Assembly (NCBI GenBank): GCA_963845245.1
Contig: CAWJRJ010000011.1
Coordinates: forward strand, 134,816-198,815
Length of the DNA stretch: 64,000 bases
DNA from: Nitrospirota bacterium
GTDB lineage: Bacteria; Nitrospirota; JACRHJ01
Direction of reading: 5' to 3'
Both the position numbers and the translations under genes were made by a program. The notes beneath the pieces are model-generated. The model worked only from the letters and a program-made list of their open reading frames with translations, was not told the DNA's origin and did not search any database. Positions 15,459-55,685 of the stretch are shown in pieces (the first letter of the stretch is position 1; each line of letters begins with the position of its first letter).

Positions 15459-15515
15459 TTTAAAAAATCATAAGGGGCGCCCCCTTCATGAGTGCCCCCC
15501 TTTCAAAAGCAGACC

Positions 15516-15607
15516 TTACTTTTCTTTCACGTGAAAGAAAAGTAACAAAAGAAAGCGAATTTAATAACGAAAGTTTTTGGCTCCACCTTTTTTCCCAAAA
15601 AGGCGGA
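15516..15607. repeat. A/T-rich hairpin+mirror-tail repeat, inverted pair
   Basis: 30-bp palindrome 15516-15545 plus tail CAAAAGAAAG; partner 15574-15607. Confidence 0.85.
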
Positions 15608-16861: not shown

Positions 16862-17018
16862 GCTTCTCGGGCTCGCTCCCGGCGATTCTCTCGGGTATTT
16901 CTAAGCTCGCTCACTGCGCCAGCAAAAACTCGCTTCGCTCAGACAGTTTGCTGTCGCAACGCTCACTTCACTAACAAATACCAACTCGGTCATCGCAAGT
17001 GCGCTCGCGCCAAGAGGC
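16862..17018. repeat. Long imperfect hairpin, related in inverted orientation to 36005-36182
   Basis: Shared core CTAAGCTCGC..TGCGCCAG.AAAAACTCGCTT.GCTCAGACAGTTT. Confidence 0.75.
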
Positions 17019-28945: not shown

Positions 28946-31446
<2,501 letters not shown>

Positions 31447-32268: not shown

Positions 32269-34847
<2,579 letters not shown>

Positions 34848-34851
34848 GGTG

Positions 34852-35958
34852 TCACGCTTTTATGTCAGCCCAGCCATCAGGGTCGGCCGTTACTTTGAAA
34901 GAATATCCTTTGTCTTTCAGTAATGTCTTATCCGTCGACGTAAACAACACTTGCCCCAGGCTGGACACGTACTCAAGAAGCGCCTCTTTGCGCCTGTCGT
35001 CCAGCTCGCTTACCGCGTCGTCCAGAAGCAGCACCGGCTGTTCGCCGGACTGCTCGTGGTAGAGCATCGCGTCCGCAAGCACGAGTGCAAGAAGCGCCAG
35101 CCTGCTCTGCCCGCGCGACGCCGTCGCCTTAAGCTCCCGGCCAGAGATCGTGAGCGCCAGGTCGTCCGTATGCGGACCTGCCAGGCAGTGGCCGCGCTTT
35201 AGACTGTCCTGCCGCTTCTTCTCGAGTATACGTCCGGTAGCAGGACCTCAAGCTCTGCCTTGTCACTGCCCTTGGCGTGGCTCTTATAGAGCAGGCCCAG
35301 ACTCCCGGCGCCCAGTACTTTATCGAACAGCTCGGCGGCGACCGGCATCAGCTCTTCCGCACGCACGCGCCGCCTTAAACCAACCTCGGCCGCAAGGGGC
35401 GCAAGCACTTCCTCATACGAGGCGACGACTTTAATATCCCTTGCCTTCAGAGCTGCGTTCAACTGCCGTACCGCCGCGCCGTACCGGGTCGCCATGTCGA
35501 GGTAGCCCGGCGTTGCATGGAATATCGAGCGGTCGAGGAACCGCCTGCGGCTTGAGGGGTACTCCTTCACCAGGAACAGGTCTTCCGGCGAGAAGCTTAT
35601 CACCCGAAGCGCCAGCAGGTAGCGGGCCGAACTCTCCGGCTTCTTGCCGTCAAGCCACGGCCGACGGCCTGCCTTCTCAAGGTCTACCTTGAGCTCATGT
35701 GCCTGGGTGTGGCCCTTTGCGCCTGCCCCGGTAACCATGCGGCCTGAGATGCGCGCCGACTTCTCTTCCCAGGATATGACGGACTGCGCCTTGACGCCCC
35801 TGAAGGAACGCAGGCTGCCCAGTATATGCACGGCCTCGAGCAGGTTCGTCTTGCCCTGCGCGTTGTCCCCGTGGAACAGATTCAAGCCCAGGGCCCAAAT
35901 CCAAATCAAGCGCCCGGTAATTTCTGACCGAACGCAGGGAAATCTTTTTTAAATACAC
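34852..35958 (-). CDS. recF: RecF (indels near 35890 and 35230)
   Basis: GDNAQGKTN, RRRFLD, LLLDDAVSELD. Confidence 0.92.
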
Positions 35959-36004: not shown

Positions 36005-36182
36005 GACAATTGGGCGGCCAAACGAACGGGCATTTGGCGAACAAGCTGGAATGACTTAGCGATGCGTAAGCGTACGCGCCGGAAACTGTCTGAGCAAAGC
36101 GAGTTTTTCTGGCGCAGCGTTGCGAGCTTAGTCATTGCCGAGCGAGCCAACCAGCCCGGAAGCTTGGGTGGCCAACTATCGT
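36005..36182. repeat. Long imperfect hairpin, related to 16862-17018
   Basis: CGGGC/GCCCG, TTGGC/GCCAA, AATGACT/AGTCATT, GCGCC/GGCGC nested. Confidence 0.75.
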
Positions 36183-37297
36183 CACACACGCATCGGCATC
36201 ACGACGCAGCGGTATCCGCCGTCGTCCGCCTGGCTTATTATGCAGGGCGAGAGCGAGTCCTTTAAAGAAGGACGACATTGTCGCTGTCCATCGCGGACAG
36301 CGCGTCCAGCAGGTACTTCGCGTTGAACCCGACCTCCATCTCGTCGCCCTTGTATGCGACGGCCAGGTCCTCGTGCGCCTCGCCCATCTCAGGGTTCTGC
36401 GACGAGAGCACGGCCTTTGAGTCGGCAAGCGAGAACTTGACGGCGTTCGTGCGCTCGCGGGAGAGGAGCGATACGCGCTTTAGCGCGGACGAGAGCAGCC
36501 CCTTGTCCACGTTGACAGTCTTGTCGTTGGAGGCCGGTATGACCTGCTCGTAGTTGGGGTAGTTGCCCTCGATCAGCCTGGTGACCATATATAGAGAGCC
36601 CGAGCCTGAACACTATGTGGTTTTTGGACATGGCCATCATCAGCTCGCCCTCGTCCTCGTCGAGGAGCTTCTTAAGCTCGGACGCGGACTTCTTCGGTAT
36701 TATGGCGGAGCCGCCCTGTGCAGAGATGTCGGCGTCGAGCTTCTTCTTGATGACCGCCAGCCTGTGGCCGTCCGTGCCGACCATCTGTATGGTGGCCCCG
36801 TCCGCCTCTTTTGCCAGGGACATGAATATCCCGTTCAGTACGTAGCGAGTATCGTTGTCGCCCGCGGCGAATATCGTCTTGCGGATAAGTTCGCGCATCA
36901 GGTGTGCGTCCACCGGCACGAACTCGGGACCTTCCATGTCCGGAAGCGCCGGGAAATCCTCCTTGGGGAGGCCCGTGAACTTGAAGACCGCGGAGCCGCT
37001 CTTGATCGTTGCCCAGTTGTTCTCGGCAGTCTCGAAGGAGACTTCCTCTGCAGGCAGCTCGCGGACGATCTCGAAGAGCTTCCGTGCCGATATGGCAACG
37101 CCGCCCGGCTCCTCCACCTGCGCCTCGTACACGCCGCGAAGCCCGATCTCAAGGTCGGTGGCCGTGACGGTTATCCCGCCCTCCCCGCTTTCGATCAGGA
37201 CGTTGGAGAGTATCGGCATGGTGTTGCGCCTGTCCGCGACCGACTGGACCCTGGAAAGCCCCTTGAGGAATTCTTCCTTCTTTATCGTGAATTTCAT
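36182..37297 (-). CDS. dnaN: DNA polymerase III beta clamp (indels)
   Basis: ATDLEI, GTDGHRL, YPNYEQVIP, FNAKYL, VVMPMRV. Confidence 0.95.
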
Positions 37298-39552: not shown

Positions 39553-39895
39553 ATGCCGTTCCTGCTTAATAAGGACAGGAGGATCCGGAAGACCTCCCAG
39601 TACAAGACTATATATGAGAGCGGTGAGAAGCGTGTAGGCAAGCTCCTGCTCTTTTTTTATGGCAAGCCCGGTTGGCATGAATCCAGGGTAGGGATAACCG
39701 TCAGCGGCAAGGTCGGCAAGGCCTATCAGACGGAACTGGGCCAAGAGAAGGATCAAAGAGGCCCTTTCAGCGGAACTTGACCCTTCGTTTCCACCGTCAG
39801 ATATGGTTTTCGTTGCAAAGAAGCGCATCCTGGATGCATCTTTCGATGATATCCGCAAAGATATAAGGGCCCTTCTGTCAGGTGTACATAAGTGA
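39553..39895 (+). CDS. rnpA: RNase P protein component (indel near 39725)
   Basis: [13 protein letters not shown]; position after rpmH. Confidence 0.85.
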
Positions 39896-40120: not shown

Positions 40121-40210
40121 CCCACCTTTTTTGTAAAAAGGGTGGCTAAAAAACTTTTTGATTTATATGTCACGTTTCTTTGTCCACTTTCTTTAACTAA
40201 AGAAAGTGGG
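40121..40210. repeat. A/T-rich hairpin+mirror-tail repeat, inverted pair
   Basis: 40121-40153 and TTTCTTT-GT-CCACTTTCTTT-AACT-AAAGAAAGTGG. Confidence 0.8.
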
Positions 40211-41813: not shown

Positions 41814-43252
41814 ATGAGCAAGCCGGACAACGATACCATCTGTGCCATCTCTACCCCGCTCGGGGCAGGTGGCATCGGCATCGTCAGATTGTCCGGTAAA
41901 GGCTCGGTGGAGATTATTTCTCAAATATTTGCCGCAAATAAGCCTTTAGTGGGTGATTATTTTAAATCTCACCGGATATATTATGGGAAGGTGGTAAATA
42001 AGCCTACAAACGAGACGGTGGACGAGGCGCTCGTGACCGTTATGCGCGCCCCGAAGACCTACACACGCGAGGACGTGGTGGAGATCAACTGCCACGGCGG
42101 GCCCGCATCCGTCAGGAAGGTGCTTGAGCTTGCAGTCAAGGCGGGGGCGAGGCTTGCCGAGCCGGGCGAGTTCACCAAGCGGGCATTCCTTAACGGCAGG
42201 ATAGACCTCACCCAGGCCGAGGCTGTAATGGACGTGATCGGCGCGGACACGGAGCTCGCCCTGGCATCAGCCGTGAAGCAGCTGGGCGGCGGCCTGAAGG
42301 CCAAGATTGAAGATATACGCGAAGCTGTCGCATCCCTTCTCGCCCTGACCGAAATATCCATAGACTTTTCAGACGAAGACATAGACTACGTTCCCCTCGA
42401 TGAACTCAAGAGAAGGGGCGGGGAGGCGAGAGCTTCGATATCCCGTCTCCGCAATACCTATAACGACGGCAGGGTCCTGAGAGAAGGCCTGAGGCTCGCA
42501 ATAGTCGGGAGCCCCAATGTCGGCAAGTCAAGCTTGCTGAACCTCGTATCGCGTACGGACCGTGCCATCGTGACCGAGATACCGGGCACTACCCGCGATA
42601 CCGTGGAGGAGATGGTGAACCTGGGCGGGATTCCCGTCAGGCTGATCGACACGGCCGGGATAAGGCACAGTGAAGATATTGTGGAAAAAGAGGGGATACG
42701 CCGCTCCGAAGAGGCGATAAAACAGGCCGACCTCGTGCTGCTGGTCCTGGACGGCAGCCGTGAACTTCAACAACAAGACGTTGATATAATTGAGAAAGTT
42801 AAGAGCAAGGCCCAACTTTCTTTTGGGAAAAGAAAGTGGCCAAAGAAAATCGGGACTTTCTAGTTTTAATTAACAAAAATGATTTGCCCCAGAAAATAAA
42901 TAGTGAAGTTCTTTGGGGTTACCTTTCTTCCAAGAAAGGTAACGAAGTCCGTCTTTCCTCAAAGACCGGCGAGGGGCTTGACGTGCTGGTGGCCCGGGTG
43001 AAGGATGCCGTGTTTTCGGGGGGCATGGAGAGGGCGCCGGAGGCGGCAATCAACCTGCGGCACAAGGAAGCCCTTGAAAGGGCAGATGTGGCGCTTGTCA
43101 GGTTCCTGGCTGGCTGCGACGAGAACCTCTCTCCAGAGTTCCTGGCGTTCGAGCTTCGGGACAGCCTCAATGCCGTCGGCGAGATAGTCGGGGCTACTAC
43201 CCCGGACGATATCCTGAACAGGATATTCAATGATTTCTGTATAGGGAAGTAA
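41814..43252 (+). CDS. mnmE: tRNA modification GTPase (indel near 42810; contains two repeat copies)
   Basis: GSPNVGKS, GTTRD, DTAG, NKND, C-terminal FCIGK. Confidence 0.95.
42811..42943. repeat. Intragenic inverted pair of A/T-rich hairpin+mirror-tail repeats
   Basis: ACTTTCTTTT-GGG-AAAAGAAAGT-GGCC-AAAGAAAA and TTCTTT-GGG-GTTACCTTTCTT-CC-AAGAAAGGTAAC. Confidence 0.85.
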
Positions 43253-43254
43253 AT

Positions 43255-43270
43255 TGTTCCACGTGGAACA
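43255..43270. promoter_or_regulatory. parS: parS site
   Basis: TGTTCCACGTGGAACA within a 24-bp palindrome. Confidence 0.93.
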
Positions 43271-43439: not shown

Positions 43440-43496
43440 GAATAAACCTGAAGGGATGTTAAACCCCTACTTCCTTAAAGCCATCAACTTAGTTAA

Positions 43497-43530
43497 TTTC
43501 TTTGGCCGCTTTCTTTGTGAAAGAAAGCGG
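43497..43530. repeat. A/T-rich hairpin+mirror-tail repeat, single
   Basis: TTTCTTT-GG-CCGCTTTCTTT-GTG-AAAGAAAGCGG. Confidence 0.8.
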
Positions 43531-43538
43531 GGTGTTTC

Positions 43539-45393: not shown

Positions 45394-45537
45394 GTATGGC
45401 GGGCAATATTATTCTCAAGTCATCAAAAAGATTCGCCTTGGTTTGCGACTAAGCTTCGAGCAATCTGACGCCTGCTCTCAGCAACTCGCAAAGGCTCGCT
45501 CACATTGATAACTTTCGAATAACACTGCCCGCCATAC
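45394..45537. repeat. Long hairpin element copy 1 (upstream of rsmG)
   Basis: Terminal stem GTATGGCGGGCA/TGCCCGCCATAC; ends shared with 46254-46391. Confidence 0.8.
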
Positions 45538-45588: not shown

Positions 45589-45604
45589 TGTTCCACGTGG
45601 AACA
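45589..45604. promoter_or_regulatory. parS: parS site
   Basis: TGTTCCACGTGGAACA within a 26-bp palindrome. Confidence 0.93.
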
Positions 45605-46253: not shown

Positions 46254-46391
46254 AGGTGTGAAATATTATTCTCAAGCCATCAAAAAGATTCGCTTCGCTT
46301 TTCAAGTAAGCCTCAGGCGACTGCGTCAGACCTCGGCATAACTTGAAAATGCTTGCTCACATTGATAACTTTCGAATAACACTTCACACCT
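46254..46391. repeat. Long hairpin element copy 2 (downstream of rsmG)
   Basis: Terminal stem AGGTGTGAA/TTCACACCT. Confidence 0.8.
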
Positions 46392-46421
46392 ATTTTTTTC
46401 AATCTAATTGAAAATTTGAGG

Positions 46422-46461
46422 CTTTCTTTTGTCTACTTTTCTTTCACCTGAAAGAAAAGTA
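46422..46461. repeat. A/T-rich hairpin+mirror-tail repeat, single
   Basis: CTTTCTTTT-GTC-TACTTTTCTTTCA-CC-TGAAAGAAAAGTA. Confidence 0.85.
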
Positions 46462-46472
46462 AGGCTTTCGGC

Positions 46473-53513: not shown

Positions 53514-55595
53514 ATGATAAAGATAAAGTACATCCTGGCCGTCATGGCCATGCTAATACTCTCCGCTGTCCCCGCCCTTGCGGTCGAGGGCGTGGAGGGC
53601 TCTGTTACGGGAGGGTTCGAGTTTTTCAGCGGTGACTTCAACAACGCCAAGTTCAACGAGTACCGCGTAAGGAGGGAGTCCCCCTGGGGCGGGTTTGCGG
53701 AGGTCGAAGCCAACTATGCAAAGCCGGACGGCAACCATGAGTATAACCTCTGCCTGAAATACAGGAGCCTTGAGGACATCGATATGCATTTTGATACGAT
53801 GTCTTACGGCGAATACAAATTCTTCGTGAACTACCAGCGGATGGGCCACACGTTCGCAACTAACGTGCATACCGTATATTCCGGAGACGGCACAGGGAAT
53901 CTGACCATTCCTGCCTCGACCTTGGCCACCGTAAATCCCAGTGATACTTTTACGTTACCTGGCTCGGCTTTGGCCCTCAAGGACGCAGTCGCTGATGCGC
54001 ATACCATAGACCTCTTCCTCATCAGGGACAGGGTCAAGACCGGACTTGACTGGATGTCGTTCAAGCCGCTTACGCTATACGCCCTGTTCGACTATGAACA
54101 CAGGGAGGGCGACAGGCCCTACGGCGCAACATTCGGTACCGACAATGGCATCGAGATACCGGAGCCGATAGACTACGACACATACAATGCCAAGGCCGGA
54201 GTGGAGTATGCCGGGCAGATGTATGCCAACGCCAGCTACAACCACTCTACGTTCAACAACAATATCCAGTCGGTTACCTATGACAATATAAAGGAGGGCA
54301 TCGGCGTCCCGACGAGGGGCAGGAGTTCTCTGGCACCTTCGAACGAGTTCGACAGCGTCTCGGTCGTGCTGGCGAAGAACCTCCCGCTCGCCACAAGGCT
54401 GATCTTTAATTTCAACTACGGCTGGCTCAGGCAGGACGAGGGCCTCCTTCCCCCGACCATAAATTCCGGTCTCGCTCCGTATAATACCACGGCCGTCCTT
54501 CCGAGGGACACCGCGGACGCAAGTGTGAACACCACGACCTATGACGTCAAGCTGACGTCGAGCCCCATAGACAAACTGGAACTGAAGGCCGGCTACCGTT
54601 ACTATCAACATGACAACAGGACTGCGGCAGCCCTCTTCCCCACCTCATTCACGGATACAGCTGATGATACATTAGAAGCAGACCCTTCCGAGTACGTAAG
54701 TTGGGTATCCCGCACGGTCAATGCGGAGGCCTCGTACGAGTTGGTCAGGCGTACGCATATAGGCTTCGCATGGGAGAACATGAATACATTGTACAGGAAC
54801 GGGATTCAGAACGAGGAGAGCGAGAATTCCTACAAGCTGTATGCGGACAGCAGGTTTCTCGATTATCTTACCGCAAGGCTGACCCTCGAATACAAGAACA
54901 GGGACGCGCTCTATAAATTAGAGTCCACCACCACACCGCGGGCGTTCTATGCCGCGGATAGAGACAGGTACATCGCCAACGCCCTCGTGACAGTCATGCC
55001 GATGGACAGCCTGACCGTTTCCGTGGACTACAGCTATGAAGACACAAGATATGCAAATACGGACTACGGCCTAAACAACGTGAGGGGCCACGTCGCCGGT
55101 CTGGACGCGGAATATCAGCCTGCATGGTGGCTTGGCATGAACCTCTATTATACCTACGAGAACCAGCGTGATCGTCAGAAAAATCCCAGGTCGGGCGCCA
55201 ACTGGGGGATTAAGACCACGGACGAGACCAACACCGTCGGCGGCGGGGTGGACGTCGGGATAATAAAGGACAAGCTCAATCTCAAAGTCGATGGATCCTA
55301 CGCCAAGGTCGACGGAGACGCGGCCTTTACGAGAAACACACCGCTATTGCCTTTTGACCACGTGGACGAGACCATGCTTACCAAGCTCGGGGCCACATTC
55401 AAGTACCAGGCAATGAAGGCGCTCGAACTGTCGCTTGGCTATGGCTACGAGAAATGGGACATAAAGGATTACCAGTATGACGGTGTGACCACCGTAGTAG
55501 TGGATCCAGGCTCCAGGACCCTGCTTGATATGAATACGCTCTACAAGCCGTACGAGGTACACTCTGTAATAGCGAGTGCAACGTACAAGTTCTAA
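53514..55595 (+). CDS. MtrB/PioB-family outer-membrane beta-barrel
   Basis: Signal peptide, AKFNEYR, PEPIDY, C-terminal ATYKF; follows decaheme gene. Confidence 0.9.
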   Translation: MIKIKYILAVMAMLILSAVPALAVEGVEGSVTGGFEFFSGDFNNAKFNEYRVRRESPWGGFAEVEANYAKPDGNHEYNLCLKYRSLEDIDMHFDTMSYGEYKFFVNYQRMGHTFATNVHTVYSGDGTGNLTIPASTLATVNPSDTFTLPGSALALKDAVADAHTIDLFLIRDRVKTGLDWMSFKPLTLYALFDYEHREGDRPYGATFGTDNGIEIPEPIDYDTYNAKAGVEYAGQMYANASYNHSTFNNNIQSVTYDNIKEGIGVPTRGRSSLAPSNEFDSVSVVLAKNLPLATRLIFNFNYGWLRQDEGLLPPTINSGLAPYNTTAVLPRDTADASVNTTTYDVKLTSSPIDKLELKAGYRYYQHDNRTAAALFPTSFTDTADDTLEADPSEYVSWVSRTVNAEASYELVRRTHIGFAWENMNTLYRNGIQNEESENSYKLYADSRFLDYLTARLTLEYKNRDALYKLESTTTPRAFYAADRDRYIANALVTVMPMDSLTVSVDYSYEDTRYANTDYGLNNVRGHVAGLDAEYQPAWWLGMNLYYTYENQRDRQKNPRSGANWGIKTTDETNTVGGGVDVGIIKDKLNLKVDGSYAKVDGDAAFTRNTPLLPFDHVDETMLTKLGATFKYQAMKALELSLGYGYEKWDIKDYQYDGVTTVVVDPGSRTLLDMNTLYKPYEVHSVIASATYKF

Positions 55596-55602
55596 CATCC
55601 CG

Positions 55603-55685
55603 GCTTTCTTTTGGTTCTTTTCTTTCACCTGAAAGAAAAGAACGATATTAGACGCAGCTTTCTTTTTTATAAAAGAAAGCTGCGT
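55603..55685. repeat. A/T-rich hairpin+mirror-tail repeat plus a related tail-less hairpin (possible terminator)
   Basis: CTTTCTTTT-G-GTTCTTTTCTTTCA-CC-TGAAAGAAAAGAAC; ACGCAGCTTTCTTTT/AAAAGAAAGCTGCGT followed by T-run. Confidence 0.8.

Follow-up and report, generated by a model that had tools for sequence, protein, structure and literature searches.

A translated pair of A/T-rich triplex-type repeats flanks the NKxD motif of MnmE and is kept in frame across several genera of Nitrospirota

How repeats of the BoxC and intrastrand-triplex type spread, and what maintains their three-way symmetry, is hard to learn from intergenic copies, which cannot tell drift, re-insertion and selection apart. 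A repeat pair that is locked in a conserved gene can. Such a pair lies in mnmE in the replication-origin region (dnaA, rnpA, yidC, mnmE, mnmG, parAB) of a Nitrospirota genome (G000), within the stretch of 64,000 nucleotides analysed here, referred to as the window. The pair is informative because the reading frame forbids stepwise insertions and deletions, the synonymous sites act as a clock and the subtypes can be compared with the free copies. Moreover, repeat DNA here replaces a secondary-structure element of a conserved GTPase, going beyond the addition of a loop, and it has been kept over genus-level distances.

The gene encodes a MnmE protein with the full domain set including the G1–G5 motifs, and mnmG is adjacent. 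The first-pass annotation had proposed that two repeat units are translated within this gene on either side of the LINKND codons, and this was borne out: the NCBIfam model TIGR00450 matches both pieces of the gene and the units are inverted, tail-to-tail, straddling the NKxD strand (Table 1). Comparison with relatives also confirmed that the spacer is host coding sequence, and therefore the pair did not arise as one simple insertion. The spacer measures 57 nt, compared with 1–20 nt in the other 23 doublets of the genome by the same yardstick. Of the two peptides read by the annotation, VLWGYLSSKKGNE is right, while the first (PTFFWEKK) is off-frame in its PTFFW part, the relatives reading [KT]QLSFGKKKVDKEN or PLSFAEKKGSKEN at this position. 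The unit-less relatives L002, L009, L204, P0015, P0017, P0018 and P0020 lack the peptides, as expected if these derive from the repeats. The AT-rich patch around the pair is real (GC3 4/10 and 5/15 vs. ~0.7 elsewhere), but the spacer of the unit-less L002 is similar in this respect (6/15).

Table 1. Positions of mnmE, of its two repeat units and of neighbouring copies in the window.
Feature	Position	Strand	Remarks
mnmE, tRNA U34 modification GTPase	41814..43252	+	two frames in G000; NCBIfam TIGR00450 on both pieces; PDB MnmE match
Repeat unit 1, A subtype, with flanks	42806..42853	-	coding strand: hairpin, then A-rich tail
Unit 1 hairpin core	42816..42836		Y arm 42816-42824, loop 42825-42827, R arm 42828-42836; 9-bp pyrimidine/purine stem
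Unit 1 mirror tail	42841..42849		read in two frames among mnmE DNA sequences
Host spacer between units	42850..42908	+	encodes strand and G4 motif; NKND at 42872-42883
Repeat unit 2, B subtype, C-containing variant	42905..42948	+	tail 42909-42914
Unit 2 stems	outer 42918-42921/42940-42943; core arms 42922-42929/42932-42939	+	
G5 motif codons SSKTG	42956..42970	+	intact, directly after unit 2
Intergenic doublet, same family, yidD-yidC	40121..40210		typical; kept in L034 with altered stems
Single unit	43495..43531	+	just upstream of mnmG; also in L034

The two units are members of a dispersed family, of which G000 has 85 units at 60 loci; per genome, copy numbers in this family range from 3 to about 200. 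In each unit a pyrimidine tail is joined by a short linker to a hairpin, whose pyrimidine arm is followed by a loop and by the complementary purine arm. Tail and pyrimidine arm are mirror images of each other, which points to an A/T-rich intrastrand-triplex architecture of the BoxC/TM kind. The presumptive Hoogsteen strand mirrors the Y arm, the stem has at least 6 bp, and there are several core variants. In 61/69 units the C stands at corresponding places of tail and arm, compared with a mean of 30.5 and a maximum of 42 in 10,000 shuffles; the units were defined without using the C position of the tail, and the figure is descriptive only as it is inflated by subfamily kinship. The reversed pattern gave 0 matches vs. 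45 and 20 forward, showing that the dispersed family is not due to chance. The family is multicopy and mainly intergenic: 81/85 units lie between genes, 78 of those between co-directional genes (background 989/1269 gaps), as counted with a simple gene caller made for this analysis. At 24 loci the units form inverted doublets with tails inward, often of unlike subtypes and with AT-rich spacers, and the first hairpin often begins 2–6 nt past the stop codon. The units are concentrated in the origin window (21/85 vs. 1.9 expected). Clearly internal units are restricted to mnmE, both in G000 (2/85) and in the relatives' loci (8/96, scanned with a filter ignoring gene ends). Two other candidates for internal in-frame copies in G000 were rejected: the one in a sensor-kinase gene on contig C19 scores weakly with the HMM and falls in a membrane segment, and the one on C21 overlaps a 3′ end. 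The pattern was found in 11/11 family genomes, and a related A/T-rich hairpin-plus-tail pattern matches 31 stretches from several phyla. Rfam gave 0 matches in the window at the gathering threshold and ViennaRNA predicted only the hairpins (z -3.0 to -4.7). As regards a MITE-like layout, with terminal inverted repeats on a fixed body and a target-site duplication, the doublets have spacers of 1–57 nt and mixed subtypes, and no pair of filled and empty sites was close enough to look for a duplication.

The class IV and class II layouts of intrastrand triplexes were defined by Holder et al. (2015; PMC4666352), where Hoyne et al. (2000) is cited. As far as the accessible part of this article describes them, BoxC, PIT and TM(ECO) share the three-block design, and the mnmE units show the class IV layout on one strand and class II on the other. 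Like TM(ECO) in the same account, the family is dispersed and multicopy, forms inverted pairs of unlike subtypes, clusters towards the origin and has no transposase beside its copies. Unlike TM(ECO), which has a G/C-rich consensus, as does BoxC, it is A/T-rich with putative T.A-T triads and one C.G-C triad, and nearly all of its copies sit between co-directional genes, the first hairpin following the stop codon after a few nucleotides. G/C-rich units of the TM type do exist in relatives, separately and around DUF559 genes. Judged by its layout, the A/T-rich family seems to work like TM without belonging to the TM(ECO) sequence family. Here one pair is translated and fixed across genera, and the accessible part of PMC4666352 describes no such case for TM.

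For repeats in coding sequence, the RPE phenomenon named in the first-pass annotation does stand as the nearest precedent. RPEs are ~150 bp long and nearly half of them lie in genes (Ogata et al., 2000, 2002, as summarized in the part of the review PMC10969869 that was accessible); like the mnmE units they are palindromic repeats in frame inside housekeeping genes. In contrast to elements of ~100–150 bp with a large in-frame genic share, the units described here are ~45 bp long, clearly internal positions are limited to 2/85, and a host motif that is conserved lies between the two. The likeness is partial also in the protein, as unit 1 fits an in-frame surface peptide with intact host motifs while unit 2 replaces a helix. 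A further precedent are the GTAG/CGTC REPs, whose intragenic dimers are presented as inserts by Di Nocera et al. (2013; PMC3733652, in part). These share the hairpin of 20–40 bp with an unpaired tail, the heterodimers arranged tail-to-tail with variable spacers and the location of some copies inside ORFs, sometimes two per gene. They differ in that our family has no terminal GTAG/CGTC tag, its tail being a T-rich arm mirror ending in G, no RAYT (Y1 transposase) flanked by units, and a pair that surrounds host sequence kept across genera. A literature search, which covered subscription papers and supplements thinly, listed no paper that treats such a pair within mnmE or the A/T-rich family itself; pertinent entries might exist among the ITxF tables in Holder et al. 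(2015) or the intragenic REPs tabulated by Di Nocera et al. (2013). The multicopy families of Geobacter, as far as PMC2700814 presents them, are other families. In-frame repeats (RPE) and intragenic REP dimers were thus already known, and an ancient straddling pair and its turnover are new.

The pair is fixed in open frame across three or more genera. Both units are in frame in 8/11 family genomes (3/3 in g2, 5/5 in g5) and both are absent from the other three (g3, g4, g6). The pair was found in 14/120 homologous MnmE proteins and in one of 80 loci (L034). Taken together there are 19 distinct repeat-bearing relatives, all with both units in open frame, and no MnmE with a single unit was found among the 120 proteins, 30 + 80 loci and 145 parsed of 150 representatives. 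The mnmE of G006 has a separate shift downstream of G5. In a FastTree phylogeny of 35 sequences with the insert region removed, from which distant metagenome loci were left out and in which internal supports are low, the bearers form one clade with three deep branches and a local support of only 0.72. Four-fold degenerate sites are 0.34–0.45 identical between this genus and g2/g5 and thus near saturation, while the proteins are 65–68% identical, showing that the arrangement is old and the gene under purifying selection. In run X3, contigs covering 42735-42918 display related strains with a 12-nt deletion before unit 1, and some X3 contigs stop matching directly behind the tail of unit 2, as if its hairpin had been altered or lost in some lineage.

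The two units affect the protein differently. The distance from the G3-side Asp to NKxD is 26 aa in most MnmE proteins, 41 aa in this genus, 33–45 aa in g2 and 29–30 aa in most of g5, and by alignment unit 1 represents a clean 15-codon insertion in this genus. From NKxD to the Ser of G5 (SAK) there are 23–25 aa with unit 2 and 21–22 aa in near relatives without it; on this comparison unit 2 has taken the place of ~11 host codons in the G4–G5 helix instead of adding length. In an AlphaFold model of P0011 (mean pLDDT 72.6, pTM 0.46, top structural matches MnmE) unit 1 is predicted as a loop (333-346, pLDDT <50) between the helix 320-331 following G3 and the strand 348-354 leading to G4, while the first half of unit 2 is predicted as a helix (364-371) at the position of the host helix; G4 and G5 are intact. 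Judging from the intact motifs and the purifying selection, MnmE is very likely still an active enzyme. The second site is tolerant more widely: L014 carries a G/C-rich hairpin repeat there at the DNA level, and P0019, P0046 and P0142 contain peptides resembling translated G/C-rich triplex units, as far as protein sequences alone can tell. A different insertion of 20–30 residues after the G domain in the MnmE proteins of G005 (L204:380-500), P0019 and P0046 marks a third tolerant site. The replacement of the helix by unit 2, the occurrence of the arrangement in several genera and the turnover of units in place had been overlooked by the first-pass annotation.

In the mnmE units it is the DNA rather than the peptide that is conserved. 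The core stem of unit 2 is fully complementary in 10/10 mnmE DNA sequences, and in its outer stem 39/40 cells pair, with one G-T and with four pair types at one position. The tail of unit 2 mirrors the arm in 9/10 sequences, the exception being L007 with a mismatch, and the tail of unit 1 is identical in 10/10. Two reading frames are in use for the arm and for the tail of unit 1, and likewise for the arm of unit 2, as in LSFAEKKGSKEN vs. SFFSGEKKEAKK and in VFGATFFQKG vs. VLWGYLSSKKG. Moreover, codons that are rare in these genes are retained in the units; by host codon usage alone this would be expected at roughly 3e-4 and 1e-5 to 1e-6 per lineage. In L003 a duplicated half-unit has decayed, and the complete unit beside it is perfect.

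How can repeat DNA be kept while its reading frame changes? Two subtypes of unit 2, C and T, are told apart by a single base at each of three places, the tail and the two arms. As +1 changes in the tail and both arms are needed, any series of single steps would shift the reading frame on the way. Besides this genus, the C subtype is carried by L007, nested in g5, and by P0009, nested in g2; these tree positions suggest two to three C/T switches, with low internal tree supports. In G000, 13/19 free copies are of the C type, matching its mnmE, whereas in G001 31/32 copies are of the T type, again matching mnmE, counted in ~245 kb of stretches chosen around known matches. Similarly, the mnmE unit 1 of L004, L005 and L008 in g5 has the CCGGC flank and the 6-nt loop of g5 free copies. 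The mnmE units thus mostly match the current free subtype of their own genome, which likely reflects overwriting in place. The correspondence is limited in the five g5 genomes, which have only 1–2 B-pattern matches each, one of them mnmE, so that present-day donors are scarce there, and the C type of L007 is without donor.

From these observations we infer the overwriting as well as an order of events, and the resulting account has in our view a slightly better than even chance of being correct: an ancestral separate entry of the two units, followed by repeated in-place overwriting by current variants and arm-to-arm copying, filtered by the reading frame. In the common ancestor, the units would have arrived one by one at two sites next to the G4 strand where insertions are tolerated; the variable spacers and mixed subtypes of the doublets suggest that doublets in general might be assembled in place. 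Later deletions and duplications would have trimmed site 1. Subtype switches might occur in single steps by gene conversion or enzyme-driven replacement, aided by copying from arm to arm within the stem, and selection on MnmE would keep only those outcomes with an open frame and intact G motifs. The clade support of 0.72, the absence of single-unit intermediates, the scarcity of donors in g5 and the failure to find a mobiliser beside A/T-rich units (see below) count against this account, and a horizontal exchange of the gene segment may have taken place.

The rival that survives best, although we consider it unlikely, is a domestication of the units, in which purifying selection keeps a hairpin or triplex in the mnmE mRNA, or in the DNA near oriC and parS, on account of a role in pausing, in mRNA decay or in the organisation of the chromosome. 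It would explain why the stems have stayed perfect in g5, where genomes are nearly devoid of free B-type copies, and why in L003 the complete unit stayed perfect next to the decayed half-unit, it agrees with the concentration of units in the origin window, and arm-to-arm copying alone cannot keep a mirror tail. Domestication fits poorly with the switching of subtypes and frames, the tail mismatch of L007 and the lack of both units in 3/11 family genomes; furthermore, the accessible part of Holder et al. (2015; PMC4666352) reports no role in gene expression for TM repeats of E. coli.

A bolder extension of the preferred account, which we regard as rather doubtful, proposes that some host or mobile enzyme recognises the three-stranded structure and rewrites triplex-type repeats in place, copying the current variant onto each strand and starting with the tail. 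Caught around an indispensable GTP-binding motif for as long as several genera have existed, the mnmE pair would then be a frame-filtered record of this process, and a helix of a universal G domain would have been permanently substituted by repeat-encoded sequence. In a search for DUF559, Y1_Tnp and small GIY-YIG genes and with Pfam on neighbouring genes, no mobiliser adjoining any A/T-rich unit was found. G000 has no DUF559 gene, and the two genomes with the highest copy numbers have no match to DUF559 or Y1 transposase. Three weak Y1_Tnp matches in G000 and two in G002 have no units within ~1.5 kb, and the small GIY-YIG genes have no A/T-rich units nearby. Pfam detected no nuclease or transposase among 39 genes beside G000 units, nor among 56/120 listed ORFs beside 31 matches in other genomes. 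In 7/11 relatives DUF559 genes are bracketed by inverted G/C-rich hairpin-plus-mirror-tail units with tails outward (L114-L123). This shows that triplex architecture can accompany a nuclease, but does not show it for the A/T-rich family.

Alternatively, each lineage might have acquired the units independently at two hotspots, the likeness resulting from the shared family and the tolerant sites, not from descent. This is improbable. The unrelated G/C-rich-repeat-like peptides at site 2 of L014, P0019, P0046 and P0142, the site-1 breakpoints that differ between genera (29–45 aa) and the clade support of 0.72 speak for it. Against it, all 19 of 19 bearers have both units and never one, and at site 2 they share the net length (23–25 aa) and the loss of the same helix, which P0019 and P0046 kept. 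Moreover, the site-1 differences fit microhomology deletions and a duplication. A-ending Lys, Glu and Gln codons depend on the tRNA modification by MnmE itself, and an autoregulation via such codons in the inserts was considered and set aside as it leaves the mirror tail unexplained.

A separate question is raised by the break of mnmE in G000. Here translation runs in frame 1 as far as LSFG and is taken up again in frame 3 with KKVAKEN, so that the actual unit 1 peptide is LSFG-x-KKVAKEN. The annotation had placed a missing base near 42810, where the contig matches listed show no inserted base; the site is the hairpin loop at 42825-42828. The unit 1 loop has 3 nt in G000 and 4 or 6 nt in 9/9 relatives with DNA, and P0010-P0013 (88–90% identical) read through without a shift, giving peptides similar to [KT]QLSFGKKKVDKEN. 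At 42825-42827 an extra base is present in L034 and in contigs of related strains (2 in X3, 2 in X4 and 1 in X10 among the matches listed), these contigs being relatives at 80–90% identity and not reads of the G000 strain. Among public sequencing runs none with RNA was listed, and the best DNA run shared 0.12 of words. In addition, the G000 assembly splits or truncates gyrA, recF, dnaN and rnpA within 15 kb and many genes elsewhere. This assembly is thus indel-rich and frameshift findings in it need caution. The break is very likely an assembly indel, in line with the suspicion of an error in the annotation. Broken genes in the window are located at 28949-31446, 32272-34715, 34855-35885, 36392-37297 and 39553-39890, and apparently the 3′ part of gyrB is affected too; a ~450-bp tandem duplication at the contig end (62998-63899, copies 92–100% identical) is possibly an assembly artefact as well.

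Programmed ribosomal frameshifting can involve an A run next to a hairpin. A biological origin of the break, either by such a mechanism or as a recent pseudogene due to slippage in the repeat, is nevertheless highly improbable. The G3-A4 run in the hairpin loop resembles a shift site, but the out-of-frame state occurs in no relative: both units are read without a break by every relative that carries them (19 of 19), five of them at 88–90% identity, and the related contigs carry the missing base, while gyrA, dnaN, recF, rnpA and other genes are likewise broken in this assembly. The -1 shift at T TTT/AAAA runs, which the annotation had kept in play, is therefore unsupported. Least credible of all is a conservation of the peptides for protein function with the DNA symmetry as a by-product, for although Lys-rich, Phe-containing segments recur and unit 2 is predicted partly helical, the reading of one DNA in two frames into different peptides and the frame switches largely refute it, and coupled amino-acid changes follow base pairing while codons rare in the host are retained.

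Some further elements of the window were noted. The loops of A-subtype units often read CACGTG or CACCTG (15515-15556, 34807-34848, 46422-46463, 55603-55644), and the centre of this hairpin resembles the middle 12 bp of the parS consensus; given the clustering near the origin as well, this may or may not be coincidence. Two perfect 16-bp palindromes (43255-43270 and 45589-45604) flank mnmG and match the parS consensus. There are nine of these parS-like palindromes in the genome, several on unit-bearing contigs, and the copy at 43255-43270 is kept in L034. A second, MITE-like repeat family is present at 45394-45537 and 46255-46400, ~140 nt long with 33-nt inverted ends and a shared 60-nt start; a similar start is present on contig C14. 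A gene for a MtrB/PioB-family decaheme-associated outer-membrane protein lies near the origin region (53514-55592). Finally, the window has two copies (16924-16966, 36066-36108) of a 43-nt element built around the core CTCGCTTCGCTCAGACA, and the same core also follows A/T-rich units in Lonepinella loci (L124, L129, L130, L136).
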